Part shown: in pieces, positions 19,081 through 64,000 of the stretch
How positions within the stretch are numbered: the stretch's first letter is position 1
Layout: each line of letters starts with the position of its first letter
Source: Sarea resinae
Lineage: Eukaryota
Length of the DNA: 64,000 bases
Assembly (NCBI GenBank): GCA_026026165.1
Contig: JAPEUD010000010.1
Span: forward strand, 248,001 to 312,000
Reading direction: 5' to 3'
Program-made: the position numbers and the translations under genes
The notes under the pieces: generated by a model
Told to the model about the DNA's origin: nothing
The model's database searches: none
The model's input: only the letters and a program-made list of their open reading frames with translations

Positions 19081-19553
19081 GATGATGGGTGCGCAATCTC
19101 TGGAGGCGGGTGGCCTCTTCGCTGTCCTAGTATTTCATGCATTGGCCAGCGGTATAGATCGCAGAGCCCATTCAGTCCTACGGTCGGGACTGATAACTCT
19201 ATGATGGCGTTCTGGCGTCTTCGAAGCTCATTGACCAGGAATAGAACGCCGGAAGCACGAGAGTCGCAAAAGGCCTTGGGCCGGACGACACTGATGGATG
19301 TGCTGCCTACTATTTGGGTTCCAATGCTACTCCGTATTGAGTGAGGCAACACAACTCCAGCTTGAGCACGGGCCACCTCAAGCTCCGCTCCAGCGTGTGA
19401 ATCGTGCGGTTTCCTACTAAAGCCTATCGCGCACTCTGCACGCTGGAGTCAATTCACATCATGTATGGCCCGTGGGTACGCGACAGCCGTCTGCGAAAAC
19501 AGAAACATACCTTTCTACTGAAGGCATAGAACTATGCGCCCAGGTCGGCCGAG

Positions 19554-22500
19554 ATGACCGATAAAGGCAGTCTTGATGGCCTCGAAGGCTTGCACCAAGA
19601 CCTTCAGGCGCTCTTGGAGTCTCGTCTCGCCAACTTGGATAGGCTCTGGACCGCGCTTGAGGAGAAGATCGCGGATTTTAGAAAGTTGCTGGACAAATCG
19701 CCCAAAAATGACAGAAGTCGCCAAGCTCTCTCGTCCGGTGAGACAGCAATCAAAGACCGGCAGATGGACAGTAGCTGATCTCTGGGTGCTCTCGTAGGCA
19801 AGATAAGCATCGACGATGAAGAGTATTCCATCAACGAAGATTTCAAACAAAATACGCTACAGCTTGCGGATGCCCTGGAGCTTGATGAAATTGAAGCTGC
19901 TCGACTATTCCTAGCTGCACAAGATGAGGCGGATGAACTGGATCGGACCCCCCTAATAACCTCGATCATTCGTTTCCATGAGCGAAGGCATTTTCTGCTC
20001 GATTGTCTGCGCTTGGTTTTGAAGCTATCTCTAGAAGTGGATGGCAACGATGGCATCCGCGACACATTCCGAGAAGTTGTCGGGCTGGTGCTGCAAAGCA
20101 AGGACCAACCTGGTCAGACCGGTTCGTCTTACTGGCGGAAATGTCTGACGAGTATGACCGATATAGAGAAATGGCTTCACGCACTGGCGGAACGAGTTCA
20201 GAGTGCTTCAATGCTGGGACAGTCCCAGCCCCCAGAGGTCGCAGAAATTATTGAATATCAGAGGACAAGTCTCATCAGGCAGCATGAATCATTGGGCGCC
20301 ATCCTTTCTTACATTACCAAGGCAAGCTATACGAGCGTTGAAGATTTCAAAGTTCTCCTCTCATCTGTCAGATCGAAGGATAAGTTCGATGTGATATTGA
20401 TCCACTATATTCCTCCAATTGGCTCTTCGATTTTCCAATGTGGATCTCCAGATGGAATTGCTACCAACCAGGAAGCGCGCTCATTGCATCGGATGATTAC
20501 AAATGCCAGAGAGTCTGAGCCATGGCATCTGCGTTATTTCCAAGGCGCCGTCATAGCTTGGTGGCTTGCGGAATACAGTGGATGGTATCTTGACCAGTTT
20601 ATCGGATCGCCTATACAAGGAGTCGATTACGACGGTGAGGCCGAAGCTCGTTCGAAGCAATTGTTCGACTCACTTCATGACGGAGCATTCCAGTTCATGT
20701 TGTCCGTCTGTTCAGATGTCAAATCCACTGATTGGTACGACCCTGCAAGGCTAGGCCTCAAGCAATATCTCATGGGCCAGTCCCCTTCTTTAACATTGGA
20801 GCCGGTGCCGCCTAGTGTTCATTTCCAGCTCCTACTGATGGAACAATTCGAAACATTCGCGGATGCTTTCATAACAAACATGCCCGACACACTCCGAAAA
20901 CTCAAGATCGAGGAAGATGATCAGCGAAAACAGCTCCATGGGCGCTTGCAAGGTGGTTTGCAGGAAATATCCCAGCAAGAAATGCACCTCGAAAGATTCC
21001 TGGTCATAATCTCCTACGCCTTCGAGCACCGTCATGACGCTGCCCAGGCCTTTTGGTCAGATCCGGACAGCAATCTCTTTGGTTTCTTACAATGGGCATC
21101 AAAACGGCAATCGACTCCCCGTGTAAGCGCATTCTGCGAGATGCTTCGCGCTATATCGGAAGGAGAAGACTGCGCAAATGCAGCTCATGAATTTCTTCTC
21201 GAAGAAGGCCCGGTGGCATCAGGACGTTTGCGGAGAACGAGCTCTATAAGTTGGGCCCAGATATTTGGAGAGCTCCAATTCTATGCTTCAAAGATACGGG
21301 ATCGACCAGCCCCTCAGCCCGTTGCGTACCAGGCTGGCAGACCCCATCATGATGAAATCGACGAACCAGAAAGCGCAATGATGCTTGAGTGTTACCTGCG
21401 GTTAAGTACTCATATGTGTACCGAAAGCCAAGTAGCGCGGACTTGGATCCTAACCCATCCAACCTTCCACCTGGCCGAAATATTGTTTCTTCTATGCGGC
21501 AGTTCTATTCCGGGCAGACTCAGAGCCTGTGCTTTCACAACACTTCGAGCACTTGTGGTCCAAAAGACGCCTGCAATTGCGGAAAGCGTTTGGCTTTCTC
21601 TGGATCAATGGGTCTCTGGCGGTTCATCTCCCTCTACTGGTCTCCAAAAGTCCGGCGTGCCCCTGGCCCCTATGTGGGTAGAAGGAGTCATCTTCGAGCA
21701 CATTGCAACTGGATTCGAAGAACCAAATGCCTTCTGTAGTCTGATCCACGCTCTCGTTCTGCCCTATGAGGACGATGACGGCCTCAATGATTGGCTACCC
21801 TTTCCGGAAAATTTAGGTTCGGCCTATCGAATGGCCGGGATCGAGCCATATGTCGATTTTGTTACCGGACGGGTATTCGGCATGAAACTACCTGAGCTTC
21901 AGGACGCAAATCAGATTATGTTACTGAGGTGGAACTGTCTCAATTTTATTGAGACCTGCCTGTCGACATTTAATGAAGACCTGGTCATTTTTGCGAATAA
22001 ATCCAACATATCTGTCGATTCGGCAATGAGAACTTCATCATTAGCGAGCTATGTACGATTGCATCCGTTTGCAAGAGTGATGGAGTGGCTGTTCAACGAG
22101 CAAGTCCTGGCTTCCCTCTTTGCCGCCGCCCATCAGGACGTTGAAGAAGTCAACAAGGCTCTGGGAGACTCTCCGTTGGTTCTCTCACTACTCCGAAGTA
22201 TCCAGGTGATGAACCTGGTAATGAAACTACAGTCTACCTACCTTGACATCGTCCGGCCAATTATCAAGCTTCAATCGACAAATCGGAGAAGCCCCGTCGC
22301 GAACTCCGCGCTGGCTTCGTTCGAGGACAGTGTGTTGAATAACTTGCAACTTGTGGTAGATCTGGGCTTGTACTGTGGTACCGGACATCAGGATCTGACC
22401 ATCGAGTCACTGGCACTTCTTGAGAAGCTATCTGTATCTCGAAAACTCATCGCATCGTCCGTCTCGGGCTTCGGTCAGCGGCTCCAGAGGAACAAAATTA

Positions 22501-24758
22501 TAGGAATTCTCGAACGAGATATGGAATCTGATCGGATTGCGATGTCCCTAGCAGCCGAGATGCAAGTCGATGCTCGGGAAATCGGCCAAGGGCCGGGCTC
22601 GTCAGGCTATGTCATCAAAATGAGCGTCCTCAACTTTCTAAATAGTTGCTTAGCCGCTCTCCCAAACTTGCCTACCGTTGGGCACGTGCTGCTTGGGTTT
22701 TCTTGCAGTGGCAGTGAGCTTGAAGTCAAACCCGACAGTCTTTTTGCGAAAAACCTCTCTCTTTTCCATGCCGTCTTACGTATCATGCTTGAATTCCCCA
22801 CTGGGGAAGAAAACAACTACCAGGCATGGCTGATGCAAATCAAGCGAAGCTGTTTCGAAATTTTTCAGAAGCTCTGGAGGTCTTCCCTCTCCACGATTTA
22901 TACCATGACTGAGCTGAGAGCAAATGAGTTCCTGTTCGCTCAAATGCTTACTCAGTCCATCGTTGACACTAACACCCTGTGGGATGCACGCTCAATCCTT
23001 GATCCTGATTTCCTTTTCACGGACTCCTCGACCTGCTTCGAGGATTTCCTCAAGCAGCGGTTAGCTCTTTTCGATTACCTCGCAACGGAGCTACGCCTTA
23101 TTGCTGAAGAGGGCGCACCGTCTCTCAAGGCTCGAATACTTTCGTCCTTACTAGGAGCCACGTTAACTCGCGATGGAGAGCAGATTCCCAACGCGTCTAT
23201 TTTTGACCTTTTCGACTTTGTAGAGCTTGAAATTGAGGGTATACGTGGTCAGCCAAATCTCAAGTATCTATCCGACGTCGATTTTAGCATTTGTCTTGCA
23301 GAAAAAGCCAATGAGCCATCAGTGTACGATTTAGCAAGCGTTCAAGAATTGCTTGCACTGCGGCAGAACGAGCTTCGGAAATCAAACTTATTTACGAGTG
23401 CTGAGGAGCAGCAATTTCAATCCGAAGCATTGGCACTGCTCTCTTATCTGCATGGGAACAATCAGTACCAACGCCTTCTTCACGTCCGCCTCGGAGCTCT
23501 TCAAGCTTGGGTCCAGTTAATAGTTGTCCTAATGGAGAGCTATGACCTTGATCAAGAGACAAAGACTGCAATCACTCTCCAGACGCTCCAGGTTATACTT
23601 CCAAAACTCGAGAAATATGCATTAGACAACGTCGAAGAGGCAGCTGAATTAGCCGGGTTGGCAAAGGCGCTAGTCTCGAACTTTGACTTTGTGTCTTCCT
23701 GTCTTGAGCGAGGGAGGACCGGAGATGTGGCCAACGATCGACTATTCCAACTTTTCCGTGTAGCACTTCGGGGCATTCACTCACCTATCGCCACGCCCAG
23801 ATTGCGCGAGACGTTCTACAACATCTGCTATCGATACCTGACTGGTATGGCTGACGTATCAAACAGCCACCCCTCTCTCCGAAGATATAGCATTCAAAGC
23901 ATCAAAGAAGCTGGGGAGCGTTTAGTAGATGTTGTTTGTGACGACGCGTATGCCGGCGATTCCACCTGTCGTGTGTCCGCGATACTACTCCTCGACGCCC
24001 TTGTTTCACTCGCTAAGCATGAAGGTTCGGTCTATATTATCGAGTCTCTGACCCGTCTGAACTTTATTGGCATCGTCGTTGATGCTATCAAACACATTTC
24101 TGCAGAGTTCAGGGATGCCGCAGCAGAAGGTAAGCATCCAGTTACCTATAGAACTCATATCTGACTCACCGCAGATGTTCCACTTCTACTATCCTATTAC
24201 AAAGCGAAGCTATCACTATTATTACGGATATCCCAGACGAGAGTTGGGGCCGCAGCTGTCATCAATGCTGGTCTGTTCCAGTCTGTGAGAGAATCCCAGT
24301 TGTTCTCGGTTGACCCTGATTTGGGACTCGGTATGTGCATGGCTTTTCCCGTTCAAAGTTGATTGAGCTGACTTGCTTAGAAATCGACAATCCTGCAGCT
24401 CTGGAAAAGTATTATGAATTGCTGCTGTCCGTGATCCGTGTCATCAATGCAGCCGTCCTCAGCAGAGGCCCACAAAACGAGCAGACCATGCAGCAGGCGA
24501 GGAAGTTCTTGACTGAGAACCGCCCTTCCGTGGTAGCTGTTTTCAAGAGGCATGCGAAGATTGGATCAGGGCAAGCCGAAATCATTTGTGATCTCGAGCA
24601 GTTGGTGGAATCCTTTGTTTTGCTTATCACGATGACGAATTTCCTAGACGTACGTTGTCCTAAACGATCGCATGAAGATGCGGACGCTCAAACTGACCAT
24701 GTCGCAGATTGAAGAGGAGACGAGTCTTCAACGAGCACCGTCCATGGCTTTCACATAG
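19554..24758 (+). CDS. NUP192: Nucleoporin Nup192/Nup205 family; about 5 exons
   Basis: N-terminal FRKLLDKSPKNDRSRQALSSG|KISIDDEEYSINEDF...ADALELDEIEAARL is characteristic of Nup192. Long alpha-helical ORF 20013-24164. Introns at about 19738-19797, 24130-24175, 24331-24380 and 24650-24707; stop TAG 24756-24758. Confidence 0.9.
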
Positions 24759-25364
24759 GTCTCAGGGGATGCAATTCTGGGATGATTGGCTAAAAAGAGG
24801 GCCCGGTAGGCCTACTGTAGCATATCATTAGACACAAAAGCATTCCAGCGTCGTAAGTTATGTAGGAATGAATACCTACTTGAATACAGCCTAGTGTACT
24901 ATAACTACGACCAAAGCCTCTCTCAAGTCAAGGTATCTGTCTTTAGTAACGCGATCCTTGTACTGGGCACGCAGAGCATCTTCCGTGATTGATGTTGAGA
25001 AGCCTCAAGGGCACCTTCATGCGCATCCGCTTATCTCCGATATGTAGAGTATGTATACTTCATTTAATAGGCTCTGGTGGGCCAAGGATGATGGCAGTCC
25101 AAGGTACTCAATACCTAGTCTCCGCAGGCTTTGCCACCACGGCCGGCGATGGTTGACAACGAAATCAAGTAGTCAGTACTGCCATCCCCGAGATATGCAG
25201 TGATCCGCCCGACAGTACCTACTGTACTTACCTACTGTTTAACCTCCATCTCTCACACGTCACCGGCTCGACACCATCACAACTCTCATCCATAGCGTCC
25301 ACGGTCCTTCGCCTCCACGCCTTCACTTGTCCCACGGTGACACGGCGGACGGGCCGACAGATAC

Positions 25365-28328
25365 ATGCAGAACTCACAGGACCTTGCTGTTGATCGAGGG
25401 ACCGGGAAACCACACGCTCAAGCAAAGCGGAAGCTCTCGAGACAGCAATTCGTTGCTGCCGAGAGCTCGACTCCGCAATCACGGCAACAGACCCTTTCGG
25501 AGCTCTTCTCGCCCTCCGCCCAGAAGCGTTGCCCTTCGGACCCCAACGAGCTCGAATCATCCCCCGCCAGCAAGCGTCTCAAGCGCACCTCGTCCTTTCT
25601 CGGGTCGAATCCCCGCACCACACACGCCGAAGTCATCCCGCCGGAAAAGATGTATCATTTTGCACCGTCTAGCTCCAAGGCAAAGGATGTCATAGACCTG
25701 ACCAGCACTCCTTCGCCGGGCCCTTCAAAGTCAAGAGCCAATGGAGCTATGCGACCTTCCAACTTCACGCCCCACACCGGAGCAAAGAAGTTGGTAGTGA
25801 AGAACCTTCGAAAGACCCCTCGAATCAATCCGGAACTTTATTTCTCTCAAGTCTGGGACCAACTGGATTCGGCCTTGACGGCAATCTTCAACAACGAAAA
25901 GGTTCCATGTTCTCTTGAGGAGCTCTACCGAGGAGTGGAGAACCTATGTCGTCAGGATAGGGCCACCGAATTGAACAAGAGACTGACAGCAAGGTGCAGC
26001 GACTATGTCTCAACCAGATTGAAGCAGCCTTTGACGGCAAAGACGAACGTTGGCAAGGATGTGGATGTTCTACGTGCTGTTCTGGCGGCCTGGTCCAAGT
26101 GGAATTCCCAATTAGTAAGAACCCCATGATCATGCCTCGTTTGATTACACCAAATTTAACCGGCAGCAGATAACCATTCGATCTATATTTTTCTACATGG
26201 ACCGCTCTTATCTCCTTCACTCGACAACCTACCCGTCCATCAACGACATGGGTCTTATTCAGTTTCGTACGCACATATTTTCCGACACTATATTGAAGTC
26301 CAAGATCGTGCGGGGAACGTGCGATCTCATAGATTATGATAGAAGAGGAGTCGAGGACCAGCTTGATCCATCCACCTTTAGACGGGCTATTGGCATGTTT
26401 CACGATTTGGCCATATATACAAAGGAGTTTGAGCCGAAGATGCTATCGCTTTCGCAGACTTACTTCAACAATTGGGCTGTAGAAGAGAGCGAATCTCAGA
26501 GCTTGGCCGTCTACGTTGAGGAAAGCCATAAGCTCATCAATAGGGAAATGACCCGTTGCGATCTCTTCAATCTCGATGGAACTACTCGTCGTGAGCTGTT
26601 GAATGAGCTTGAAGACATTCTCATTGATGAGAGAAAAGGCTTTCTGGTCGAGACGGACAGTGTGTCCAAGTTATTGGAGGCTAACGCCACAAGCTCCTTG
26701 GAACAGCTGTACCTTCTTCTTGAGAGATTGCGGCTAGGGTCGAAATTGAGGGCTCCTTTCGAATCGTTCATCATTACTCAAGGATCTTCTATCGTATTCG
26801 ACCAAGAACGAGAGAGCGAGATGGTGGTCAGGCTATTGTCATTCAAGAAGAGGCTAGATACCATTTGGAAAGTATCTTTCCACAGGCACGAAGGGCTGGG
26901 TCATAGCCTACGAGAGGCGTTTGAAAATTTCATCAACAAGTCGAAAAAAACCAGCTCTAATTGGAACACGGACAATGCGAAACCAGGAGAGATGATTGCA
27001 AAATACGTGGATATGCTGCTTCGTGGAGGAGCTAAAGCGATTCCCACCGCGCTTTCTTCTGCCGACAAGGGTGGGCTGAGGGATGACGACGATGCGGATG
27101 GCACGATTGGCGACGAAGATGCAGAAATTAATAGCCAACTAGATCAAGTCCTTGATCTCTTCCGATTCGTTCATGGAAAGGCGGTCTTTGAAGCCTTCTA
27201 CAAGAAAGATCTTGCTCGAAGATTGCTTATGGGCCGAAGTGCAAGTGCCGATGCTGAACGGAGTATGCTAGCGAGACTGAAGACCGGTAAGTCCTCAGGA
27301 ACCGAATGAGAATCTATAACGAATCCTAACACTCTACAGAATGTGGCGCTGGCTTCACTCACAATCTTGAGCAAATGTTCAAGGATGTTGACCTTGCACG
27401 GGATGAGATGAGCTCTTACAAGACTTACATGGAAGGAAAGCACAAGAAGACAGCACTTGACCTCAATGTCAACGTGCTCTCCGCCTCGTCGTGGCCAACG
27501 TATCCAGATATACCTGTCAATATGCCTTCCGATATACTTCAAGCCATCAACGATTTCGATTCCCACTACAAGTCCAAGCACACAGGGCGAAAGTTGCAGT
27601 GGAAACACTCTCTCGCACACTGTCAGCTCAAGGCGAATTTCCCCAAGGGAAATAAAGAGATTGTTGTCAGTTCGTTCCAAACCATTGTGCTGTTGCTTTT
27701 CAATGATGTGGATCCTCGCCACCACGTTGGTTATAAAGATATTCGGGCGGCGACGGGACTTTGTAAGCCGATTAACTCTTCATTGACGGGACTCAAAGGA
27801 CGTTGCTAATCAATCTTCTCAGCCGACGTTGAATTGAAACGCACCCTCCAATCTCTCGCATGCGCCAAATACCGCCCTCTGCTCAAGCATCCCAAAGGCC
27901 GCGAAGTCAACGAGTCCGACACTTTCACCATCAACCTCACCTTTTCCGATGCCAAATATCGCATCAAGATCAACCAGATCCAGCTGAAGGAGACCAAGGA
28001 GGAGAATAAGGAAACGCACGAACGCGTGGCGCAAGATCGGCACTATGAGACGCAGGCCGCGATTGTACGGATCATGAAGTCGAGAAAGACAATCAAGCAT
28101 GCGGAGTTGGTCGCCGAGGTCATAAAAGCCACGAAGACGAGGGGGGTGCTTGATCCTGCGGATATCAAGAAGAACATCGAGAAGTATGCACCCCTTCCCC
28201 GCTTTGGCTTTGATTTACTTCTTTTGAAGGGAGACATTTTGCTGACTTTGATGACGCGACGAACCAGGTTGATTGAGAAGGACTATATGGAACGAGAAGA
28301 GGGTAATGCATATAGGTATTTGGCATAA
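25365..28328 (+). CDS. CUL4: Cullin-4 (CRL4 ubiquitin ligase scaffold); 5 exons
   Basis: CUL4-type N-terminus GAKKLVVKNLR, SLEELYRGVENLC, YMDRSYLL, KPGEMIAKYVD, FEAFYKKDLARRLL, GRKLQWKHSL, and neddylation region QAAIVRIMKSRK ending LIEKDYMER. Confidence 0.95.
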
Positions 28329-28738
28329 GGAGAGTCACAGCTTGCGTAGCTAGCACAGCCTATCAGACTTTAAGCCTTTTATGCATAGATACGTAATGTT
28401 ATGTTTCAGGCGCTGGGCGGTCTGCAAAGGGCGTCATTCCTTCTCGCCCGACGGCAAGAATCAAGCATCCACGACGATGTATGTAGAGTGTTATTTAGAA
28501 CAAGCACATCTCAGTATCTGGTGATCTTTTAGTTCACTGGGATAAAAAGGAGATTGACCCAAACATACGCATATTTGATGCATCATGACATCGTTGGGCG
28601 ACTTTGGTCCAGAACATCTCTGCGCATTTGCGCCGGAACTTGCCGTCATATTCTCTATCAAGACATGACAAGCTGTCAACCACAAGGCCAAACGCAATAC
28701 CAGATGAACAGATATATTTGATACCACGTACCTCAAAG

Positions 28739-30886: not shown

Positions 30887-31167
30887 TAGCTGAGTGCTTG
30901 AGTGAGTCGGCGAGAGGCTGAGAGCGGGCGAGTCGGCGAGTGAGTGAGTGACTGAGTGAGTGACTGAGTGGGCGACTAACTGGGCGAGTGACTGAGTGGA
31001 CCGGACTGGACCCCGGCGTTTCAACCATTTCTTTTCCTTCTTTCCCCTTTTCCCTTTTCCCTGTTCCCCTTCTTTTTCCTTTTCCTTCAGGCACCCATCG
31101 AACTGTTTCAGAGGGCTTAGGTCGCAGGGCGCATGGACGTGGCATGGTATGGCACGCAATGGGATAT

Positions 31168-41274: not shown

Positions 41275-43344
41275 TGCGAAAGAAATGACGAACAGATCCG
41301 TTTCACTACCGAATGAATATACTTGTGAAAAGGATCAAATCTAGGGACCTCGGGGGTCAGCTTTGGAAAAAATCTCAGGGCGCGCGACGTTTCATTTGGC
41401 GCGGTGATCGGAATTACGAACCGATCAGGGAGCTTGACACGGCAGATGATGAGCTTCCTAGAAAGTAGATTGATATGGTCGGACGAAGCTTGAAAGAAAT
41501 CGGCAGGCCGTTCGCTGAAATGATGAACGGAGAACCGAAAGGAACAAGTTCGAGGTTGGAGGCTGAATAACTGCCCAAAGCTAGTGGTCAACAAAAAGAT
41601 TATCAAAATGGCGAGAGGTGCAGGGCCAGAGGTACGTACGAGATAAATGGACGAAACGAGACAAGAGAAGACGGGAGGAAAAGAGAGGAATCACTCGAAT
41701 CCAAACGCCCACGCTTGACTTGCGATGGAGATGTACTTCGAACCGAAGAAAGGAGAAGGGAACGGATGGAGATGAGGAGGGGAAGAGAGAGAGCGAAGAG
41801 GAAGAGGCGGAGAGGAGAGAAGAGGGACAGCAGAGGAGGAGGAGGAGGAGGAGCAAGACGAACAGAGCAGTCAGTAGGTAGAGTGAGGTACAGACAGTAC
41901 TGGAAGTCGGTACTTTTGGTGGCTGCCACAGCAGAAGCAGCCAAGTCGGCCGTCGTAGGTAGACTCGTGGGAGAGGACCTAAGTAGGTACCTGTGAGTTG
42001 GGCGGGTGGTTGGTTGAATTCAAGGTACCTGGAACCTGAAGGGGAGCTCCAGGACCCTTTCGAGTAGGGCGTGACAGCGGAAGCGACAGGGTGTGGGAGC
42101 ATGATCGAGGGTATCTCTACTCCGTACTCTACCAGCTCGACCACCACCACCGGGACAAGGACTTACTTCAGTAGTAAGCGAGCGCATTTCGGTACAGAGG
42201 GAGCGAGGTAACTTCGTACGGTAAGCAGGTACCGAGCAAAGTGTCTTCCTTCACATACAATAATAACGATGGCGATGATGGATAATGGATGGAGCCCACG
42301 ATCAGCCTCCATCAGCCTCGAGGGAGGCAATTGAAGAACGACGATCCCATAGGAGGGGTCACAGCAGAGCAGCAATCCGGGCATCAGCAGGCATGTCGGC
42401 ACATGATGCCCCGTGTGCCCTGGGTCTCGAGAGAGACTCATGGATGCCCGCCCGCGCCAGCGTCTGCGCCGTACTCCGAGTATATCATATTTCAAGAGCC
42501 ATTTTATGATTTGTCGAGTTCATCTGATATTCAGTAACACGCCTCCAGGGCTGGCTCACCGAACACAGAAGTGGCCAGTTCATGACATACCTTCACCTAC
42601 TTGGGAGGTCTACTTCAGTAGCTTGGGCATCTGTACTCCGTACGCCTCTGGGCCAATTTACATCTCGGATGTATCACCACTCTACGGAGTACTCTCTCTG
42701 CCCCTCATCCCCCCTGACTGCCGCCGCGAGCATTACCGTCGGAGCATTCGCGCCTTATTGGCCTTTGCTCGGGTGTGACGTTAGTCGAGGTCATATCTCT
42801 TCTGAAGCTGTCTAATGTATGATCTGTGAATATCTGTCGGGGTGCACGTTCAGGTCGGAATCTGAACACCATATCTTCGGCCTTTCTACTGTGCTGATGA
42901 TAATCCAAAGAAATTCGACCGTTTGGTGTTTACCTTTGCAGACCCTCTTCAGGAAGTCTTCGAGCTAGACCCAAGGGAGCGCACCGCTCAAAAGGTGTCT
43001 GGTACCTCAACGCCCTACCAGTGTGGCCGCGAATCCAGGTGTCTCTACTTTTCGACTTTCCCACCTTATGAACACCAGGGTTCGGAGATGATCTTCTCGG
43101 ATCTTCCCGCAAGAGCCTATCCATCAATGGAGCTACATCCGACATGGTGCTCCATTCCATTGATCATTCACCTCATCTTGCCTGAGCTAGATATACTAAT
43201 CTTGCATCTGAGCAACGAATGCCCGACAAACGACCTTTGATTGATGCGCTTTCTCAGGGCAGTTGATCGCGCCGCGTTGGACTTTGGTCTCGTTAGTCTC
43301 CTGCTTACATCGATTGCCGGCTCGCCCTGCGTCAAGAAGCTAGT

Positions 43345-50202: not shown

Positions 50203-50211
50203 GTTCAGTAA

Positions 50212-52081: not shown

Positions 52082-52203
52082 TGAGATGGTGCTGTGGAGG
52101 AGTAGCGGCGGGTAGATAAAGGTATCAGGCGATTGTTGTAGTTGAGGAGGTGATAAGTTTTAGGGGTGAGGACTGAGTCCGGTCTGAGATTGACACAGGT
52201 GGC

Positions 52204-52281
<78 letters not shown>
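52204..52281 (+). repeat. (AGT)26 trinucleotide microsatellite upstream of the glycine-zipper gene
   Basis: Perfect agt repeats read directly. Confidence 0.95.
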
Positions 52282-52282
<1 letters not shown>

Positions 52283-53052
52283 ATCGATGAGAAGGATATG
52301 GAGAATCTCTTTGACAATGTGGCGACGATGAACAGTCACAGAAGGATTATATACTGGATACTCCGGAGTAGGATAACGGCCACTTGCTTACCCATCCATG
52401 TGGTGGGAATGTGGCAATATGGATCGATCTCGGCACAAAACGACCCCAATGGTGGCATGGGATTTGGTAAGGGCCATCGGTCAGCCTTCTCAGGGTCCAT
52501 GTACAGTGACGCCAGTGCGCAGCGTCGAGGATGTCGTAGCGACCCGAGTGCCGCGAGAGCACAGCCCCGACCGCCCGAGCGTATCCGCATCAGGCACAGG
52601 AACCCCTCCCCGGCCACATCATTGGTGCTCGCTGCGGCCACTCACCGCCACATCTCACCATCCGTCATCGTCTCTGCGTACTACTCCGGAGTATTCCTAG
52701 AGCATAACTTTACGTCAGTCAGGAGGTCACCTGCGAGGCCAGCGGAGATTCGTCCAAAGACGTACTGGCGTGGAAAAGTGCATGCTGTGCAGACAGAGGA
52801 GAGTACGCGATTTTCCTTCGCCTGGGCTTTGGCTCCAGCTGCCTCGATGCTCTTCCGGCAACGATTGGCGACGGGAGAATAAGACATGCGGGGTGAGGTG
52901 TCGAGAGACGCTCTGACACCTATCCAAAGCCAATCACTGTAGCACGATCCGAGTAATTTCCAACGGCACAACTTTGGTCCAGATGCACGCCTCGATTGTT
53001 CCTCGACTAAGTGTACAGTATATTAAGCAGAATGCCTATCATCGACCATCGC

Positions 53053-54146
53053 TCACCAAATCTTATTATCGGCCTTGCTGATCCGTTGCTCCCCATCCTC
53101 GACAACTGCAGCCTTTCCTCGCACCACCTTGCGCGTCCCGGGGGGCCGGAAATACAAACTCGGGCCCTGACCTTCGCCCACCAGATGGTTCAAGTAACCC
53201 CGATGTGCCGGATCGCGATAGTATTCAATGTCCTTTCGGGAAGTTGGGTCGGGGAGTCGGTATGCGAAGCGCTTAGCGGGCGGTGCCGTGGTCTCGGCGG
53301 CGGGAGATGATGTGGTAGTCGATGGGGAATAGGCTGGTAGAGACACCAAGGGGTCTGATTGGCCGCGCAGGATACGTCGGATCGCTGGTTTCGTGTAGAA
53401 TCGAGTCGTGATACTACCGCCGGCGCTCTCAATCGCATTGATGGCAGATGTGGAGGCGCGGGATACGATGATGTTTATTGGAGTACGGAGCTCAGAGGCG
53501 CCCTGAGAATAAAGAAGTCAGATTCGATGTTTGCATCAGCGGACGTGCGCCAAAGGGCGGGACAGCGATTGATGCTGCTCATTCGATGTGGCAAAGGATA
53601 GAAGACGTACTCTTGCGAGTAGCTTGACGCCATCTTTAACGCCATGTAGACAGCGCGAGTCGTTGAGCTCTTTCAATGTGATGGGCTTTGAAGGGTCGAG
53701 CCGACCCTGATCGATCCAGCTCTGGAGTCGATCGACGTTCAACGGCGACATGTCGACAGAGAAACTAGAGCAGTAAGTTCAGCCGATGGTCACTATATAT
53801 TTTTCCTCGACTCGTATGAAAGATGTGTTTTCACGCACTGATTTTCGAAGCCTCGTGGGCCGTGGACAACTTCTATGGGCGTCTGGCCACCATTGAAGCC
53901 GGTAGGAACTTTTCCATGCTGCTTTTGACCCTTGTGGCCTCTTCCGGATGTCTTTCCTTTCCCTGACGACGGTCCTCTACCCCTTCGGATGCGCTTGTTG
54001 TAGGCTCCAGCGTTATCCGACAACGAGGACAGGATCGAGGCCGCTCGTTGTTGCTGAGAGAGTAGAGACAATATTACAGAGGAGGGCGAGGACGAGCATG
54101 GCCTGAGGGAGCAGGCCGCTCGTAGTTGATTTAATCGTGGAGGCAT
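53053..54146 (-). CDS. MRPL10: Mitochondrial large-subunit ribosomal protein uL15m (MrpL10); 3 exons
   Basis: Presequence MPPRLNQLRAACSLR, uL15 motif RRGRGPSSGKGKTSGRGHKGQKQ, LQSWIDQGRLDP..ITLKEL, DGVKLLAR, and DIEYYRDPAHRGYL. Confidence 0.9.
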
Positions 54147-54724
54147 GATGGACGATATCACGACCTTGGTGCCTGCTGCTACCTTGGAGGTTCATGATCA
54201 AAGTCGAGGTTTGACAGCCACATTCGCTTAGTCATCATTGAGGCTCTCTTCCGGCCACAGCTCCCTGCCGAGGGGCGTCGGGCGCCTGCAATGGATGGCA
54301 GACGTCCATGGATCTCGTTTAGATTTCCGCATACGGCAATGTGCCAGAAAGGATGGCATTCCGATTCTTCCAGGTTGGCAGAATGCAGCTTGGTAGGGAG
54401 AGAGTACTCAGTACTTCTAAAGCCTCCTATCCCAGTCGTATGTTCAAGTCTTGAGTACCTTAACTTTCTCCCGTCTGCTTGTTACGGGACCCCTACAGTA
54501 CTTGGCATATCCTCACAAGAGCCAAGATATATATCTGGCTGCTTCCGCTCAGCGTGATTGACACGCTCTACTCCTGGCTATCTCGGTGATGCGCGACCTC
54601 TTGAGAGAGGAAAAGCGACCGCGCAGGTGAACGGATACAGTGACCACCGAGAGTATCATCGAGCCTCTCGACCGCCCTCACGAGAGGAGCTTCATTGCTC
54701 GTTCTAGGGTGCCATACCCTCAAA

Positions 54725-56865
54725 ATGGCTGCCTTCGATCGGGGCAAACAACGCCTCTTTTTCCTCATCGCAGCTCTTGGCGTCGTTCTGATATTGGGCA
54801 ATCTCTTTGTACTCTCTGGCGAGGATGTACGCTCCCATCTTATAAGTCTGCCGATTCCAGGTATACCAAAAGAAGAGGGACAGCCAGCAAAGCCGTCTTC
54901 AACGGTAAGTCCACTACGATCTCAGTGACTTTGTGAGTCTGCTAGACTCAATCGCTCACGTTTCTGACTATGTCTAAGCCGCCGTCGGAATGGGAAGAGC
55001 CGGTCGACACGCATCCTATCGCTGTTTTGATGAGGGAGGCCGACCAGAAGTGGAAGGAATATGAAGAAGATCGTTCCAAGACATTTCGAGAAACCGTCAG
55101 CAAATACCGACGGAAATATGGCCGACATCCGCCTCCTGGATTCAAGGAGGTACGTTCACAAATGTCCAGCTGCTATCGGAACCTGCAACTAACCTAGTCA
55201 TGAAGTGGTATCAATTTGCGCGGGAGAAGAACGTCTACAACATTGATGACTTTGAGCAGATCATGGACGATCTGAGGCCTTTCTGGGGCGTGGAACCAAA
55301 AGCCATTCGAGCCTTGGCTGCAACGCTGTGGGAAGAAAATTCAAACGGGATCTCGGGGATTCATATACGCGGGCACAAAATTGTCAATGAAACCAACAAG
55401 GGATGGCGATCCGAAACACTTGTCACATTGATCGAGAAATTCGTCGAACATCTGCCTGACATGGATATTGCGATGAATCGACTTGACCAGCCTCGCGTTG
55501 TGGTTCCCTGGGAGGATATGCAAGAGCTGCTGGCAAAGGAGAGGGACAGTCGGCAAATGCGGCCTGAGGCAGCATATGAATTCACTCAAGGCATGGACGG
55601 CTTTGCTATGCTCGGGCCCAAGCCCGAGAATTACACATTAGACCCACCTCCGGAGAAATTGGACTTCTTCCAAGGCCGAGGAAAGCAGTATATGGACATC
55701 GCGAAAAAGGCATGCCCCCCTGAGTCTCCCGCTCGAAACAAAGATGCGACCCTAGAGGATTCCGAGAAGCTTTACAAGCACCGGCTGGGAGGGTTGGTCA
55801 CGAATTTCAACCGATCGAGCGATCTCTGCACGGTTGGCCCAAGCATTCAAGAGAAACATGGCTTTCTCTACGCTGCGACCTCTGTTGTTGCGACTCATAA
55901 GCTTGCGCCCATCTTTGGAGAGTGCAAGGTCAATGTCAACAACGACATCCTCTTCCCTGCGAACATGTACTGGAAACACGATGATCGCTACGACTACGAC
56001 GACACCCATGACCTACACTGGGATGATAAGCATGACTCTGTGGTCTGGAGAGGTGTTACGTCTGGTGGGGTACAGCTTGAGGACAACTGGAAGCGCATGC
56101 ATCGGCAGCGCCTTGTCCAGTTGCTGAATGGAACAGAAATGCAAGGCAAAGATGTGCGAATCCTGACAGAAGTTCCCGAAAAGAAGGGCGAATACGAGAA
56201 CTTCCGTCAATTTCAGCCGTCCAAGTTCGCCGAGGAGCACACTGATGTGGGCTTTACCGAAGCCTGGGGCTGCATTCCAAATTGTGACTTTTACAAAGAC
56301 GTGTGGACGCTCAAACCGCAGGTCTCTCTCTCGGAACAATTCGAATACAAATACCTCGTGGACGTGGATGGTCATTCTTTCTCGGGCAGATGGCGAGCCT
56401 TCCTCGAGAGCAAGTCTCTCGGCATCAAAGCGACCGTCTTCCGTGAATGGCACGATTCGAGGTTGTTTGCGTGGCGACATTTCGTGCCCATGGACAACAA
56501 ATTCGATGATATATACACTCTACTGACCTACTTCATCGGCCTCGGCCGGCCGGGCCAGAATCCCCAAGATAACTACGCTAACGGCGAGGCATATGTCAGT
56601 CGCCACGACATCGAAGGGAAGAAGATTGCCAACCAGGGCCGCGAATGGGCGGGCAAGGTCTTGCGAAGGGACGACATTGAGGTTCGTACTTTTTCTCCGG
56701 CCTGGGGCGATTGTTCCCTCGGGCATTGCTGATGGCGGACAGATTTATACCTTCCGACTGCTCTTAGAATACGGCCGCATCATCGACGACAATCGCGATC
56801 AGATCGGCTACTTTGGAGATGGCGGCGAGTTGGACAAGTACGACGGCAAGAAGCCGACGGCATAG
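54725..56865 (+). CDS. Glycosyltransferase family 90 (CAP10/Cxt1-like beta-1,2-xylosyltransferase); 4 exons
   Basis: Type II signal anchor RLFFLIAALGVVLILGNLFVL, YRRKYGRHPPPGFKE|WY, LPDMDIAMNRLDQPRV, WRGVTSGG, YKYLVDVDGHSFSGRW, FREWHDSRLFAWRHFVP, YTFRLLLEYGR. Confidence 0.9.
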
Positions 56866-58188
56866 GGGCACTTTTGATCTTGCATCTCACGGCGTTCCGA
56901 GGGGGTCTTCGAACAGGGATGCATTTGGGGCCGCGTTGGGTTGGACGGTCGACGCGGCGATGTACATATACCCAGTACGCAGTAGTGCTGTGGCTTGGAC
57001 CATGGATTGTATGGATTGTATCGTATCATGCGTGTAGAAGCAAAAGAGAGTTCATGTTCAGATCCAATCCCATGGCCATTGATGCCATCGAGCCGTGTGT
57101 GCGTGTCTACGGAGTACTCTGGAGGAGGTGGGGCGGCGTGTCCTATGTACTACGTAGTTGTTGATGGAAGACGACGGAATGCTGGACCGAGGGCCTTCCA
57201 ATCGGTTTGCAACGAGCATAGTAGAGTATGTAGTATGAAGTACTACTCGGAGTACATGCTCCTAACATCGGAGATCTAATCAGACAAGAGATGGACGGCG
57301 CAGGATCATCATCGGTCAGGTTCTCCGGACTCCTCCCCTTCATGCTTCAGACCTCCAGACCCTTCTCCGCTGGAGCGAACCCCTGATTTCGTCTGGTGCT
57401 CCAGTGAGAGGGGGCGCGAGTGCTGGCATGACGCTGCATCATGCAATCTCCATGGTTAAGCGTGCGAACCACGGCCCAGATCCCGGTTGCACATCATCGC
57501 CGCAGCACGAGCGAGAGAAGCCATGCGCCCGACAGTTCCGGGTTCGCGGACAATTACGGGGAAGCCTAGATGGCCGGGCTGGCCGGGCGGAGACTCCGCA
57601 TTCCAGCTCCCATCTTCCCTGATGGGACGGAGAAACATGACCTCCATTTGACGCTGCCTCCTGCCTACATAGTACGCCGTCTTCTCTCTCTGATACCGGC
57701 CCTGGACCGTAGATTCCGGCGGTCCTCCTCCACCGGAAAGGTATCTCTCTCTACCTCCTCTGCCCGATGGCTTAGGGGGGGCGTCCGAGCTCATGCCAAG
57801 CTGCGTAGTACTTCGTACGTAACTGATCTTGCTGAAGAGTGAGTAATACGGCGTAGAAGAGAAAAAAGGGAAGAGCGAAGAAAGAAGCAAGAAGCCAGAA
57901 GCAAGAAGCAAGACGATACTAGAATTGATCTCTTGGATCATTACTCATCCATCTTCGTTCACTGGGACGGACTCCCCTCCGCGACCGACCACGGCAGATT
58001 GTGGTCGCTAAAGAAAGATTTGACCGCAGGAGTCACCGTCTACTTGACTGTGCAAACCATCTCTTGCGGCTCAGCTCTCATCCAGCTGATTGCCAACCTC
58101 TCCACTCTTCCCTTTTCCCCTTCGATCTTCTTCTTCCTCATCCTCTTCCTCTTCCTCTTCCTCGACCGCCCCGTCGCGACGCCTGTCA

Positions 58189-60218
58189 ATGGCAACGACT
58201 ACGGTGATGAGGCCTCTGCTCTCGTCCGCTGGGGCTTTGGGCTTCCGGCCTGCCGCTCGTCGGGCCGTCGTTGCTCCGTCACGCCCTCTCACTTCGATAA
58301 CGCGCCCGATTGCTGCAGCATCGCCGTGGAGTCGACTGCCGGTTCAGCAGCAATTCCGTCGAGCGTACGCCGATGCGGCAGCTCCTGCGCCCAAGAAGAA
58401 GAAGAGCCCGTTTCGGTTCTTCCGATGGGCATGGCGCTTGACCTATCTGTCAGCATTCGCGGGCGTTGGATATCTGGCTTGGGGTGTCTACAACGCTCGG
58501 AACCCCATCGATCAGCCAGAGCCCAGCCCCGACAAGAAGACTCTCGTCATTCTCGGTATGTCGTCGCTTTCTCGGCGTCGTCGGGTTGGCTTTGTTACTG
58601 ACGGCCGATATCGCAGGGACCGGATGGGGCTCTGTGTCGCTGTTGAAGAAGCTCAAGACGGAAAATTACAATGTCATCGTCATCTCTCCTCGGAATTTCT
58701 TCCTCTTCACTCCATTGTTGCCGTCGTGCACGACCGGAACCATTGAGCATCGCTCGATCATGGAGCCCGTGCGCAACTTTCTCCGACACAAGAAATGCGC
58801 CGTCAAGGTAAGTGATATGGCTTGGCTCTCCCTTTTCGATTGATACCAACCATCTATTCAGTTCTACGAAGCCGATGCCACCAAGATCGATTACGAGAAG
58901 AAGGTTGTCTATATCAGCGACGATTCCGAGGTCAAGGGCGACACTTCATCCACGGAAGTTCCTTTTGACCTACTTGTCATTGGTGTAGGGGCCGAGAACG
59001 CAACCTTTGGTGGGTGGAGAGCATATTCATCGTTTTGGCATCATATCTAACGACGGCCTCTAGGCATTCCTGGTGTGCGCGAGCATTCTTGTTTCCTGAA
59101 AGAAGTGGGTGACGCGCAGGAGATCCGAAAGCGAATCATGGACTGCGTTGAGACCGCCAACTTCAAGGATCAGAGCCCCGGAGAGATCGAGCGGTTGCTG
59201 CACATGGTCGTAGTTGGCGGCGGGCCGACTGGTGTGGAATTCGCGGGAGAACTCCAGGATTTCTTTGAGCATGATCTGAAACGATGGATTCCTGAAGTCA
59301 AGGAGAAGTTCCACGTCACTCTGATCGAGGCTCTTCCCAACGTAAGTGGTGCGCATTTCTTGACAGGCAATCTCTCTGACGGTGTCAAGGTCCTCCCTTC
59401 ATTCTCTCGACAACTGATCGACTACACGGAGAAGACGTTCAAGGAAGAGACCATCTCCATCCGGACCAAGACCATGGTAAAGAGAGTGACGGACAAAACC
59501 ATCGAAGCCGAGTTCACCAAGCCTGATGGAACCAAGGAGCTCGAGGTCATTCCCTACGGTCTTCTCGTCTGGGCGACGGGCAACGCCCTCCGTCCCGTCG
59601 TCAAGGATCTGATGAGCCAAATCCCGGCCCAAAAGGACTCTCGCCGCGGCCTGGCCGTGAACGAGTATCTGGTGGTCAACGGCACCGAGGGCGTCTGGGC
59701 CGTCGGCGACTGCGCCATCTCGCACTACGCGCCCACGGCGCAGGTGGCCGCGCAAGAGGGGGCCTTTTTGGCGCACCTCTTCAACCACATGGCGCGCTCC
59801 GAGGACCTCGAGACGGAGCTCAAGCTGCTCTCGGAAGACCAAGCGAAAGCGCCGACGGAACAGGCGCGCAACGAGATCTTCGCCGAGATCAAGGAGCGCC
59901 AGCGCCAGCTGCGACGCGTCAAGCACGTCGGGCCCTTTGAGTACTCGCACCAGGGCAGTCTGGCGTACATTGGCAGCGAGCGGGCCGTGGCCGACATCAG
60001 CTGGCTCAGTGGCAATTTCGCCAGCGGCGGCACGCTGACGTATCTGTTCTGGCGCAGCGCCTATCTGAGCATGTGCTTTAGCAGTAAGTAGAACCTTTTT
60101 TTGAGTGGCTGATGTTTTGCTGATATATTGTTTCCGTGTCACAGCCCGGAACCGCGTTCTTGTGCTCGTCGACTGGCTCAAGGCCAAGATGTTTGGCCGA
60201 GATGTGTCGAGGGAGTAG
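58189..60218 (+). CDS. Mitochondrial external alternative NADH dehydrogenase (NDH-2, Nde1-like); 6 exons
   Basis: Presequence, TM segment, [77 protein letters not shown], ending FGRDVSRE*. Confidence 0.92.
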
Positions 60219-60245
60219 AGGAGGGGAGTGGACGAGAGGGGTATA

Positions 60246-60340
60246 GAGGAGAGGAGAGGAGAGGAGAGGAGAGGAGAGGAGAGGAGAGGAGAGGAGAGGA
60301 GAGGAGAGGAGAGGAGAGGAGAGGAGAGGAGAGGAGAGGA
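60246..60340 (+). repeat. (GAGGA)19 pentanucleotide microsatellite in the 3' flank of the NDH-2 gene
   Basis: Perfect gagga repeats read directly. Confidence 0.95.
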
Positions 60341-60902
60341 GAGCAGTAGAGTAGACGCAGTAGGCTTTTATCTACCAACTTCACCATCGTCTCCCTCTAT
60401 CCTCCATCCTCCGTCTTCGACCTCTCCTCTTATGGCCCGGTTGTATCATACCGGGGAGGTCCGGACACACGAGAGAAAGAGAAAGAGAAAGAGAGCAAGA
60501 GAGACAAAGTTGTGGATAGATGGATCCAGGCACCACCTTTGATTTTCTGGCTCATCCTATCTGGCCGATCCTGCTGCGTCCTCTTGTCTTGTCTTGTCTT
60601 GTCTTCTCTCTTGTTGTTGGTCTTTCCTTTTTTTCTTTTTTTCCAGATTTTCCTGTCCCTCCCCCTTGGTGGCTGTTCTGTTGGTACGTTTCTTTTGTTG
60701 TTCTCTTGAGTAGTAGTGGGATTCGTTGGGTAGGGGGAAGATAGTATAGTAAAGAGGAGAGGGGGGGAGAGAGGGAAGAGGGGGAAGGGGTCCTATATCT
60801 ATCTACCTACCTAGTGGCTTAGAATTTAAGTAATGTTCTCTGTGCTCTGTTAGGCTTGATGTTCTTTAGCTCTTCTCTGCCCTCTACACTATATGCTCTT
60901 TG

Positions 60903-60980
60903 CCTTTACTTTGCGCCTTTACTCTATGCCTCTACTCTACACCTTTACTCTACACCTCTACTCTACACCTCTACTCTTTA
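60903..60980 (+). repeat. Degenerate 13-bp tandem repeat (about 6 units, consensus CCTYTACTCTACA)
   Basis: Units: cctttactttgcg, cctttactctatg, cctctactctaca, cctttactctaca, cctctactctaca, cctctactcttta. Confidence 0.85.
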
Positions 60981-61172
60981 CCTTACCTTTTTACTCTTAC
61001 CTCTTAGCCTTCCTAGCCTCCTTACTAGCTCAATCCTCTTTTCCTACTGTACTTCTAGGTAGACTCTCTACTAGAAGATCTAACTAATCCTAGTATACTC
61101 TCTTCTCTTCCTCTTTCTCTTCTCTCTTTCTCTTTCTTTTCCTCTTTCTCTATCCTAAATTCTTATCCTCCT

Positions 61173-61259
61173 CTTCTTCTTCTTCTTCTTCTTCTTCTTC
61201 TTCTTCTTCTTCTTCTTCTTCTTCTTCTTCTTCTTCTTCTTCTTCTTCTTCTTCTTCTT
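61173..61259 (+). repeat. (CTT)~29 trinucleotide microsatellite
   Basis: Perfect ctt repeats read directly. Confidence 0.95.
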
Positions 61260-64000
61260 TTTTTCTTATGTTCTTCTTTCTCTTCCTTTATAGCTTTCTT
61301 CTTCTTTCTTTATTATTTCTTCCTAGTTAGGTAGGTAGTAAGATTAAACTTAGTAAGTATCTTTAAAGTATAATAGTAGTAGTAGTAGTAGTAGTAGGAG
61401 AAGGATTTAATAATTAGAGAAAAAGATATATAAAGATAGAGGTAGAGAGAGGAGAGAAAAGAGAGAAAGGAGAGAAATAGGAATATTCTCTATACTCTAT
61501 TAGGTTCTACACTATATACTCTAACATCTACTCTTTACCTCTCTATCTCTCTTCTCTTCTTATATCTTGAAATTCTTTTCTCTCTAGAATAGCGCCTATG
61601 GTTAGTGGTGAGGTTAGTATCTCTTAATCTCTCTCTCCCTCTCTCTCTCTCTCTCTTTTTTACATAGTAATAGCAAAGATTAGTAGGTAGTTAAATGCGT
61701 GAGTAAGTAGGTAAGTAAGTAAGCAAGTAAGTCAAGTATTTTACTTTCTTTACGCTCCATCTATCTATCTATCCTACCTATCTATTGATCTACTTATATA
61801 TCTATCTATCCTACCTATCTCTTATACCTACCTATATCCTATATCCTATTCTCTATACTAGACCCCTCTCTTTTCTCTTTCCTTACCTCTTTCCTTACTC
61901 TCTCCTTAGCCTCTCCTTACTCTCTTTCTTTACTAACGTCTCTATTGTTCTATTGTAGTTTAGATAGAGAAGGACTAAGGTAGGATGACATTATTACCTT
62001 GCTATTGCTATGAATTGTAAAAACAAGGAGAGGAAGTAAAACGTAGACAGTAGTAGTAGTGGTAGTGGTAGTACGTGAAGGAGAGAAGAGAAGATAAGAG
62101 AAGATAAGACTAAAGAGACATGCAATAGCTAAGAGGCCTAGAGAGGTTATATAATGTATTATGTTAAGCATCTATAAGGTAGCGTGTGAGCTGTAAGAGT
62201 AGGGTGTAAGCTGTGAGCTGTAAGCTGTGAGTTATAAGAGGAGAGGAGGGTAGAGGAGGGTAGGGTATGGTTGACAAGAGGGTGTTGCGAATTAGTGTCG
62301 TGGATTGATATTATAGGAAGTGTGTGGGATAGTATTTTGGTATCGTAGGAGTCGTAGGAGTTGTAGGGAGGTGTGGGAGTTGTGGAGCATGCCATGGAAG
62401 GACTATAGGGGTTAGAAGAGCTATGAGAGCTAAAAGGGCTGGACGAGCTGGACGAGCTGAGTGATAATAGTGATGATGTTGAGCGACGATGAGGATACGG
62501 GAAGAGGAGATGTTTGTGGATATCTTCACGGGGGCGGGCTGTTGCCTCTGCCTCTGCCTCTGCCTGTGCCAGCCCACGGTCAATCACCATCGAACAAAGA
62601 CACCAGCCATCACCATTTACACTTCGAGTCCAGATAGAGAGGAAACGACTGGCGGGCAGCCTCTCCCGACTCCAAGACCGTCGGTGATATGGTCATGGTC
62701 GTCATGGTCATTTCGTCTTTGCAGGAAACCCAGCGGTGTGAGAAACATTGAAAAAAGTAATACTCAAAGCGATCGAACGTCGCAGTGACGAGTAAGACGG
62801 CATGAGCGGCAGCGAACAGCAACATCAACGCCTGAAGCAGATGTTCTTAGCTGCACGGCTCCATGACGAGACAGCCAGCCAGCCAGCCGGATAGACAGCC
62901 GGCTGGACTAGGCGGGTAAGAAGGAGAGAAAAAGGAAACGTTGGAGAGAAAAGAATGTTGGGCATTCCATCTCGATCATGTAGATGGCCGGTTTCCGTCT
63001 CTTTCAGATACACCGCAGTCAAGCCGCTCGCTCTATGACAGTAGTACTCATGGCGGTGCCGTGATGCGGTGTCCTCCTGTCGAAGATGACAGTGATAATG
63101 TCCATAGTGGGTCGATCCGTCGAGCACTCATTCGCAGGATCGAAATTTCTCGGCGGAGCCTTGCCAGCTTAGTACGGCCTATCGCCCAGGGTACGGAAAA
63201 GAAAATAAAGGGACGTTGGTTGCCCCAAATCCGATGAAGGGACAAAGTAGCAGAGCAGGCGTTCCAGGTAAGATAGTACTCAATCTCCGTCATAGGCCCC
63301 GCCGACCAAAGTCCGATGCAGATGGATCATGGATCATGGATGGATCGACGGATCAAGGATGCCTGGTAGATGGAGTCGAGTAGAGTACGAGTAGATGCTC
63401 CTGAAAGCCCGACTCCACCCCATCACTCCCAAAGAAAAATCCCACCAGAATCGATCGTGGATGGACGGACAGCCGAGGAGCGGAACGACTGCTGAGCTTC
63501 GATCCGTGGCCACAGTGGAGGAGAGAAGAAGGGCGGGAAAGAGGGGTAGCATGGTAGGATGGATCTCCCGGGCTGATCTTCCTTGTCTTATCTCCTTGGC
63601 CTCTTTTACTCTACTCGGTATCACTACTACTCCGTACTCTGAGTACTCTACTACCTACATAGTACGACAAGGAAGCACCTTGCCATTCTGCCGCCGCGCT
63701 CCTCCTCCTCCTCCTCCTCCTCGCGCTCTTGCGTGTCATTCGGCTGTCAAATCCATCTCTCTCTCTCGTGCTTCCGCTCCCTCGGCCTGCAGGCGGGCCA
63801 GAGATCCCAGACGAGACCTCGCACTTGGCGCTTTGCATCGAATGCCATCCCTCGTACCCTGGAGGCTACTCCGTATCAAGTACAGCGTACTTGCCTGCTG
63901 CTGGTGAGCCAAATCCTGCCGGGACGTGAAGATCGTTCCCCAACTCTGGCCGCTGATTGCAGTCTCGGGACCGCCCCTACATGATCGATACTGAGTGTCA

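Follow-up and report, generated by a model that had tools for sequence, protein, structure and literature searches.

The 9-mer TACTCCGTA and a family of related words, each bounded by TA on both sides, are dispersed through the non-coding DNA of the fungus Sarea resinae, in a 64,000-nucleotide stretch of contig JAPEUD010000010.1 (positions 248,001 to 312,000; hereafter the window) and throughout the genome. These words are probably the accumulated excision footprints of TA-duplicating cut-and-paste elements of the Tc1/mariner superfamily, of a fungal and not a plant-mariner type. Such an origin is supported, not proven, and the donor of the main word TACTCCGTA is missing. A preliminary description of the window had ascribed the words to a Stowaway/plant-mariner-type transposon: excision of a TA-duplicating element is still the best-supported reading, while the proposed identity of that element did not hold.

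Several lines of evidence favor the scar origin: i) the top-ranking short words match the ends of elements resident in this genome; ii) the two halves of the 12-mers co-vary; iii) the CTCCG junctions are end-paired; iv) the words are chained; v) strain pairs of other fungi differ by a single TA vs TA-x-TA, albeit with a weak excess; vi) the words are patchily distributed across lineages; vii) they are decayed.

A TA-flanked word family in non-coding DNA

All 16 coordinates in the preliminary description bear the words reported there and are non-coding, and the excess it claimed for the 9-mer was borne out by window shuffles, a Markov model and a genome-wide control. On both strands of the window TACTCCGTA occurs seven times, against a mean of 0.16 and a maximum of 1 in 100 dinucleotide shuffles. 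In a 664-kb sample (the window plus further stretches of the same genome) there are 54 copies vs 3.1 expected under an order-3 Markov model, and across the 25.5 Mb of genome searched there are 1,452 vs 187 for the reversed word used as control; for TACTCCGGAGTA the genome-wide count is 471 vs 0 for its control. In the non-coding DNA of the sample, TACTCCGTA ranks first among the 9-mers other than microsatellites. Moreover, predicted coding segments, as called by a crude model with a coding fraction of 0.32-0.38, hold none of the 81 TACTCCGTA, TACTCCGAGTA and TACTCCGGAGTA sites of the 664-kb sample.

The flanking TAs are part of the word: single changes in either of them lowered the count from 54 to 1-6 per variant, near background, with a related 12-mer as the sole exception. 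The word family is real and spread genome-wide, and it is wider than the set first described, since it also takes in CTNCG sister words: at position 5 the 664-kb sample has 54 TACTCCGTA, 38 TACTTCGTA, 25 TACTACGTA and 14 TACTGCGTA, where 2-4 of each were expected. Shorter words are enriched as well (TACCTA 442 vs 163, TACCTTA 154 vs 32 and TACTCTA 149 vs 57).

A proposed pairing rule for the inner bases

Perfect palindromes make up 85 of 105 tallied sites of the form TACT-N-CG-N'-AGTA (47 with C, 20 with G, 17 with A and one with T at N); 20,000 shuffles averaged 38 and never exceeded 56. The tally was made by hand from 58 sites among the first 100 matches listed plus 47 TACTCCGGAGTA sites over the same stretch. 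Only three mixed C/G 12-mers were observed vs 22.5 expected. Thus the halves of the 12-mer co-vary, and a dimeric factor with one degenerate position does not fit. The same logic applies to the C>T forms of the word, which had been taken as its variants: if TACTTCGTA were a decay product of TACTCCGTA, the 38:54 ratio predicts that mixed C/T 12-mers outnumber pure ones, and five mixed vs 47 pure were seen. The C>T forms are therefore sister families, not decay products.

The grammar first proposed for the words, TA followed by a prefix of CTCC, a suffix of GGAG and TA, accounts for the words it listed and fails on further forms that it predicts. TACTCCAGTA is absent from the 664-kb sample (0 vs 1.2 expected) and from a hold-out of 68 loci of the same genome, and TACTCCTA is near background (22 vs 13.8). 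Parsed with CTCC ends, overlaps of 4 to 0 bases give 22 (13.8 expected), 54, 0, 11 and 16 sites, and no junction pairs. Parsed with CTCCG as a 5-base tail, the end-paired junctions have counts of 54, 11 and 16 and the three unpaired forms all score 0, so that the CTCCG/CGGAG parse covers present and absent forms alike. The 3-overlap form pairs for CTCCG only, and in the sister families its counts are 1, 3 and 0. This end-pairing rule was derived after the fact; in the hold-out (~246 kb from outside the sequence used for the derivation; AT-rich repeat makes up much of it, and it is not a fresh unbiased stretch) paired forms number 35 and unpaired forms two. The words can also be written with 4-base fragments, and five bases fit the spectrum better. 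A parse with CGGA ends was rejected (TACGGATCCGTA 0, other longer forms at background).

Insertion at TA, staggered excision and end-joining to TA-x-TA are established for the Tc1/mariner superfamily. An element would enter at a TA and duplicate it; upon staggered excision its first bases would stay as single-stranded tails on both flanks, and end-joining would close these tails into TA-x-TA. In S. resinae the TACTNCGTA family would stem from elements ending in 5'-CTNCG (CTCCG being the commonest) with 5-nt tails, which would join only if the overlap is paired at both of its ends: an overlap of 5 would yield TACTCCGTA, of 3 TACTCCGAGTA and of 2 TACTCCGGAGTA. The new TAs may have been re-entered, producing chains; repeat-induced point mutation (RIP) may have destroyed the donors while the scars persisted; and some scars may later have come to serve as factor-binding sites. 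For this mechanism, PMC4561436 and PMC3894167 describe cleavage with a stagger, overhangs derived from the element, and imperfect ends that are annealed during end-joining.

Two further enriched words lie outside this scheme. The palindrome ATCCATGGAT has 13 sites vs ~1 expected in the 664-kb sample, all non-coding (e.g., L058:2147-2165), and since it lacks TA flanks it forms a separate word family. TACTATGAGTA/TACTCATAGTA, with 12 sites vs 0.17 expected in the same sample (e.g., L058:5000, 5742 and 7043), falls outside the CTNCG rule.

Chaining and decay of the words

Among 155 non-coding sites, 33 lie within 10 bp of another, where 1.4 were expected. Of 262 slots for neighbor words sharing a TA with a site, 63 are filled by family words, vs a background of 9.7%; the slots are not independent. 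One-mismatch forms of the 12-mer number 485 (control 53) vs 471 perfect copies, i.e., ~7% change per site, with change in excess at CpG; this pattern fits neutral decay, and selection is also possible.

The densest clusters seen, with 18 strong sites per 10 kb, are in a long spacer (L058:2000-8000, G000:C2:160000-166000), which also carries tandem runs of a 7-base unit. Three sequencing runs were searched for this 10-kb locus: the region was present only in the possible source run, with no indel or variant, and the other two runs held short alien pieces.

Resident elements match the commonest short words

The analysis turned up three families of TA-flanked inverted-repeat elements in the genome, all outside the window, with CAGT, CTCG and CCTG ends. 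The first comprises Tc1-like DD34E elements with CAGT/CGGT ends, at L001 and, as a left end preceded by GGAGTA, at L002. The L001 element (L001:1268-2577, G000:C71) has one stop between two frames and diverged ends, has two partial relatives elsewhere, and abuts chained TA-x-TA words, TACTCCGTA among them. The second is a miniature inverted-repeat transposable element (MITE) of ~270 bp with a TA duplication, present at six loci (L040:5924-6192, G000:C1:635924-636192, and L096-L100), whose 34-bp terminal repeats begin with CTCG; its autonomous partner was not found. The third, a DD34E element of 2.9 kb damaged by RIP (L206:3545-6461, G000:C86:173545-176461), has CCTG ends, and its 120-bp terminal repeats match at 116 of 120 bases.

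The first three bases of these ends are the top three TA-xxx-TA words: once AT-rich (RIP) and microsatellite stretches are masked, CCT, CTC and CAG rank 1, 2 and 3 of 28 in 404 kb of non-coding sequence. Likewise CC ranks 1 of nine two-base words, and among 110 four-base words CTCG comes first and CCTG fourth. The CTCG-ended MITE also fits the pairing logic with four bases (TACTCGTA 40 vs 15.6; TACTCGAGTA 4 vs 0.8).

Donors of the pogo/Fot1 type were considered and rejected: DDE_1 had one match and HTH_Tnp_Tc5 two, these genes are intact and look domesticated, and no TA-anchored repeat was found at the one scanned. Two intact CENP-B/pogo-like genes, one with DDE_1 and one with the HTH only (L006, G000:C133; L104, G000:C23), are candidate binders of terminal-repeat-like words. 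A perfect long inverted repeat at L194:4136-4697 lies in AT-rich DNA by a contig end and may be an assembly artefact.

Words and TA-x-TA alleles in other fungi

For comparison we used 80 of 309 confirmed metagenome PUB1 loci, with strain clusters 96-99% alike; comparisons of single-TA with TA-x-TA alleles come from these other fungi only. Among 119 indels of 3-12 bases, 56 were non-tandem, 27 of them with a flanking repeat of at least two bases, and six of these 27 were changes between TA and TA-x-TA vs 2.6 expected (P=0.047). L129 alone carried the same 6-base insertion (x=GTTC) twice, at TAs separated by 157 bp. The other polymorphic x were CTAG, TGA, CGAG and CTGAC, the CGAG and CTGAC insertions being near-tandem, with polarity assigned by majority only; TGA is the second-ranked three-base word in the cluster where it is polymorphic. 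An inverted-repeat scan of the 80 loci found no CTC-ended element.

CTCC-family words number two in 515 kb of other-fungal DNA (33 non-redundant loci, PUB1 exon excluded) vs 81 in 664 kb here, while TACTTCGTA has 11 copies in the same 515 kb. The cluster of six sites upstream of PUB1 in the window has no counterpart in 28 other-fungal loci with 3 kb upstream each, where two family words occur, neither of them CTCC; this comparison concerns one gene and distant fungi. Other fungi have top TA-x-TA words of their own (CAG and TGA in L137, CC in L151, CCT in L106), as would be expected if scar spectra differ between lineages.

Weighing the explanations

The identity originally proposed for the donor, a Stowaway/plant-mariner element (DD39D, CTCCCTCC-ended), is very improbable. 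Footprints of Triticeae Stowaway elements, such as TACTCC...AGTA, do follow a similar pattern (PMC1925063), and TA targeting and the plant terminal repeat are confirmed in PMC3660474 and PMC4423477. In S. resinae, TA followed by CTCCCTCCRT occurs six times genome-wide vs 12 for the control, with no partner end at any of the six loci, and TACTCCAGTA, the plant form, is absent as noted above. The search suggested earlier for DD(34-39)D transposases did retrieve elements (two of the five DDE_3 matches were measured, and both are DD34E), with ends of CCTG and CAGT and not CTCC; inverted-repeat scans, covering <0.9 Mb of the 25.5 Mb, found no element with CTCC...GGAG terminal repeats. A profile search for DUF7769, which we take to be linked to plant mariners, gave no match in this genome, nor in any control. 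PlantMar elements are reported, in the available text of PMC7325037, only from flowering plants and a few oomycetes, and the window is ascomycete DNA. A hairpin (P-nucleotide) mechanism of the hAT type was also rejected: hAT footprints are likewise short palindromic scars in spacers, whereas the inner bases here are constant and not copies of the flanks, and the forms mirroring the left end are all but missing from the 664-kb sample (TACTCCGGTA 0, TACTCCGGATA 1).

The strongest competitor holds that the words are transcription-factor sites, for SomA or for a CGG-reading Zn2Cys6 protein with the half-site TACTCCG, which arose by point mutation and were selected in long regulatory regions; on balance we consider this unlikely. 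GTACTCCGTAC is the top motif in SomA chromatin immunoprecipitation (ChIP) in Aspergillus fumigatus, where 119 of 476 peaks contain it, and mutating the probe abolished binding in an electrophoretic mobility shift assay (PMC7667024). It shares with the present word the 9-base core, the promoter-side location and a preference for flanking G and C (22 and 29 of 54 sites here). A predicted overlap with a C6 motif is given in PMC12153272. All four bases occur at position 5 (54 C, 38 T, 25 A and 14 G), so that it looks degenerate. On crude gene calls, CTCC words number 3.0 per 10 kb in divergent, 1.8 in tandem and 0.55 in convergent spacers, and this ~5-fold difference is the pattern expected of a binding site; density also rises with spacer length, and 77 spacers <700 bp, by a crude classification, hold none of the six core words, the 473-bp spacer with site 19328 being an exception found by hand. 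On the other side stand the co-variation of the 12-mer halves, unlike independent half-sites; the need for three geometries (9, 11 and 12 bp); the lack of a peak near gene starts (only five of 48 sites within 500 bp of a predicted start) and of an orientation bias toward genes (22 vs 26); the lack of conservation of the PUB1-upstream cluster; and the match of CCT, CTC and CAG to resident element ends, which binding sites leave unexplained. 

As a further alternative, mutation without any transposase, i.e., slippage and template switching that perfect short inverted repeats, might build TAC...GTA words and palindromes in unconstrained spacers, which we regard as decidedly improbable. The favored forms are all inverted repeats, a single word is sometimes repeated in tandem, simple tandem duplication accounts for some of the polymorphic TA-type indels in other fungi, and the enrichment of ATCCATGGAT extends to a palindrome without TA flanks. 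Such a process does not account for a fixed CTNCG core or for lineage-specific words, and leaves unexplained both the match to resident element ends and the finding, in a single strain, of one and the same non-tandem 6-base insertion at two TAs.

Excision scars of fungal Tc1/mariner-superfamily elements account best for these observations, and several points weigh against them, besides the spacer densities given above. Neither family searches, whose counts are lower bounds, nor the inverted-repeat scans of <0.9 Mb yielded a CTCC- or CTNCG-ended element; RIP hides old copies from profile searches. All three resident ends begin with C, as do most enriched words, and RIP-damaged repeats yield TACCTA, TACCTTA and TACTCTA by composition. 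CC, CCT and CTC words are common without end pairing, TACTTCAGTA is enriched (9 vs 1.0) outside the pairing rule, and the rule leaves the rarity of TACTTCGAAGTA unexplained. The excision fragments described in the available text of PMC1925063 are of 1-4 bases vs five here. The excess of polymorphic TA-x-TA alleles, all of them from other fungi, is weak and includes no CTCC word. Furthermore, 25 retroelement loci (84 kb, TA-rich) contain no CTNCG word and no footprint-like indel; their copies are 80-96% alike and almost without indels (L070-L085 comprise roughly twelve copies of a single family, heavily mutated by RIP), so that there is no sign of recent scar formation in them.

The proposed scars resemble the footprints of Tc1/mariner elements and Stowaway MITEs as described in PMC1925063, PMC4561436 and PMC3894167 in being bounded by TA, in the few inner bases that match the element end, in reuse of the same TA and in repair by end-joining. 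They differ from known Tc1/mariner footprints in their genome-wide scale in an element-poor fungus and in the probable 5-nt CTNCG tail, with a donor of the main word that was not found and is not Stowaway.

The word is already in print in other roles. CTACGGAGTA, the same word, is the target of the Starship Tardis and lies above the 99.99th percentile of A. fumigatus 10-mers (PMC12153272); there it is the landing site of a giant element, whereas here it would be the product of other elements' excision. The Tardis target is suggested in PMC12153272 to be a factor site, its nature being left as an open question, and the available text of PMC7667024 gives no origin for the SomA motif, which here appears as one member of a co-varying TA-x-TA family. 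No proposal of a footprint origin for this word in fungi was found among the matches listed, in a body of literature that mostly excluded subscription journals. A scar origin and later use by SomA are compatible. Co-option as Zn2Cys6 sites, as previously suggested, is plausible; the factor in print is SomA (PMC7667024), and the C6 overlap is a prediction only (PMC12153272). SomA binding in S. resinae is likewise putative. More speculatively, and with more doubt than confidence, TACTCCGTA, which is an orphan top word in this genome and in Aspergillus alike, might be a fossil left by an undescribed Tc1/mariner-superfamily clade whose elements ended in CTNCG and were cut with a 5-nt stagger; thousands of their scars would have written much of the promoter vocabulary of filamentous ascomycetes and then been adopted twice, as SomA sites and as the Tardis landing pad.

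A scar origin would explain where the word printed in A. fumigatus as SomA motif and Tardis target came from. If it is true, common promoter words in filamentous fungi would be the residue of transposon traffic whose donors were erased by RIP, spacer k-mer spectra would record extinct elements and the geometry of their cleavage, and a scar-aware background would be needed when motifs are called from ChIP peaks in such fungi. If it is false, the motif still belongs to a family of co-varying words that no single consensus captures.

Sites and other features of the window

The window is gene-dense ascomycete DNA, with genes named from their domains as RAD5-like, TEL1, NUP192, cullin, PIF1, PUB1-like and NADH dehydrogenase. 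One of its proteins shares 99% identity with a protein labelled Sarea resinae, and the matches that follow stand at 76-81%. Site 19328 lies between the probable starts of TEL1 (19080, minus strand) and NUP192 (19554, plus strand). The full SomA 11-mer GTACTCCGTAC is present at one of the seven TACTCCGTA sites. The words and related features are as follows.

19328..19336, plus strand: TA-CTCCG-TA, in the 473-bp divergent TEL1/NUP192 promoter
22189..22200, plus strand: TACTCCGAAGTA, within the NUP192 reading frame; a coding chance match, excluded from the scars
42118..42131, plus strand: TA-CTCCG-TA joined by its second TA to TA-CTC-TA, upstream of PUB1
42164..42173, plus strand: TA-CTTCAG-TA, a related enriched word outside the CTNCG rule
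42472..42482, plus strand: TA-CTCCG-AG-TA, the 3-nt overlap form
42611..42620, plus strand: TA-CTTCAG-TA
42634..42642, plus strand: TA-CTCCG-TA, which with its flanks makes up the full published SomA 11-mer
42683..42691, minus strand: TA-CTCCG-TA
52359..52370, unstranded: TACTCCGGAGTA palindrome, the 2-nt CG overlap form, non-coding
52682..52693, unstranded: TACTCCGGAGTA palindrome, chained behind TA-C-TA
54405..54413, plus strand: TA-CTCAG-TA, of the CTC family
56976..56984, minus strand: TA-CTGCG-TA, of a sister family absent from the preliminary description
57108..57116, minus strand: TA-CTCCG-TA
57148..57156, plus strand: TA-CTACG-TA, of another sister family absent from the preliminary description
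57222..57254, unstranded: TA-sharing chain of TA-x-TA words, from TAGAGTA to TACTCGGAGTA (at 57244)
57809..57817, plus strand: TA-CTTCG-TA, a sister family and not decay
63381..63393, plus strand: TA-GAG-TA chained to TA-CGAG-TA, both matching ends of the resident CTCG-ended MITE
63628..63636, plus strand: TA-CTCCG-TA within a chain of related words
63867..63875, plus strand: TA-CTCCG-TA

Five open frames overlapping or adjoining these sites had no match in a Pfam search, and a sixth nearby, of low complexity, had a sub-threshold match only. No Rfam family or tRNA was found in the window, leaving an RNA explanation unsupported. A stretch at 60900-62300 is AT-rich (GC 0.34), microsatellite-rich and RIP-like, with no element identified there, and contains a 13-bp tandem array with TACTCTA. 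A perfect (AGT)26 repeat lies at 52204-52281, directly upstream of a minus-strand gene and beside two of the 12-mer sites.

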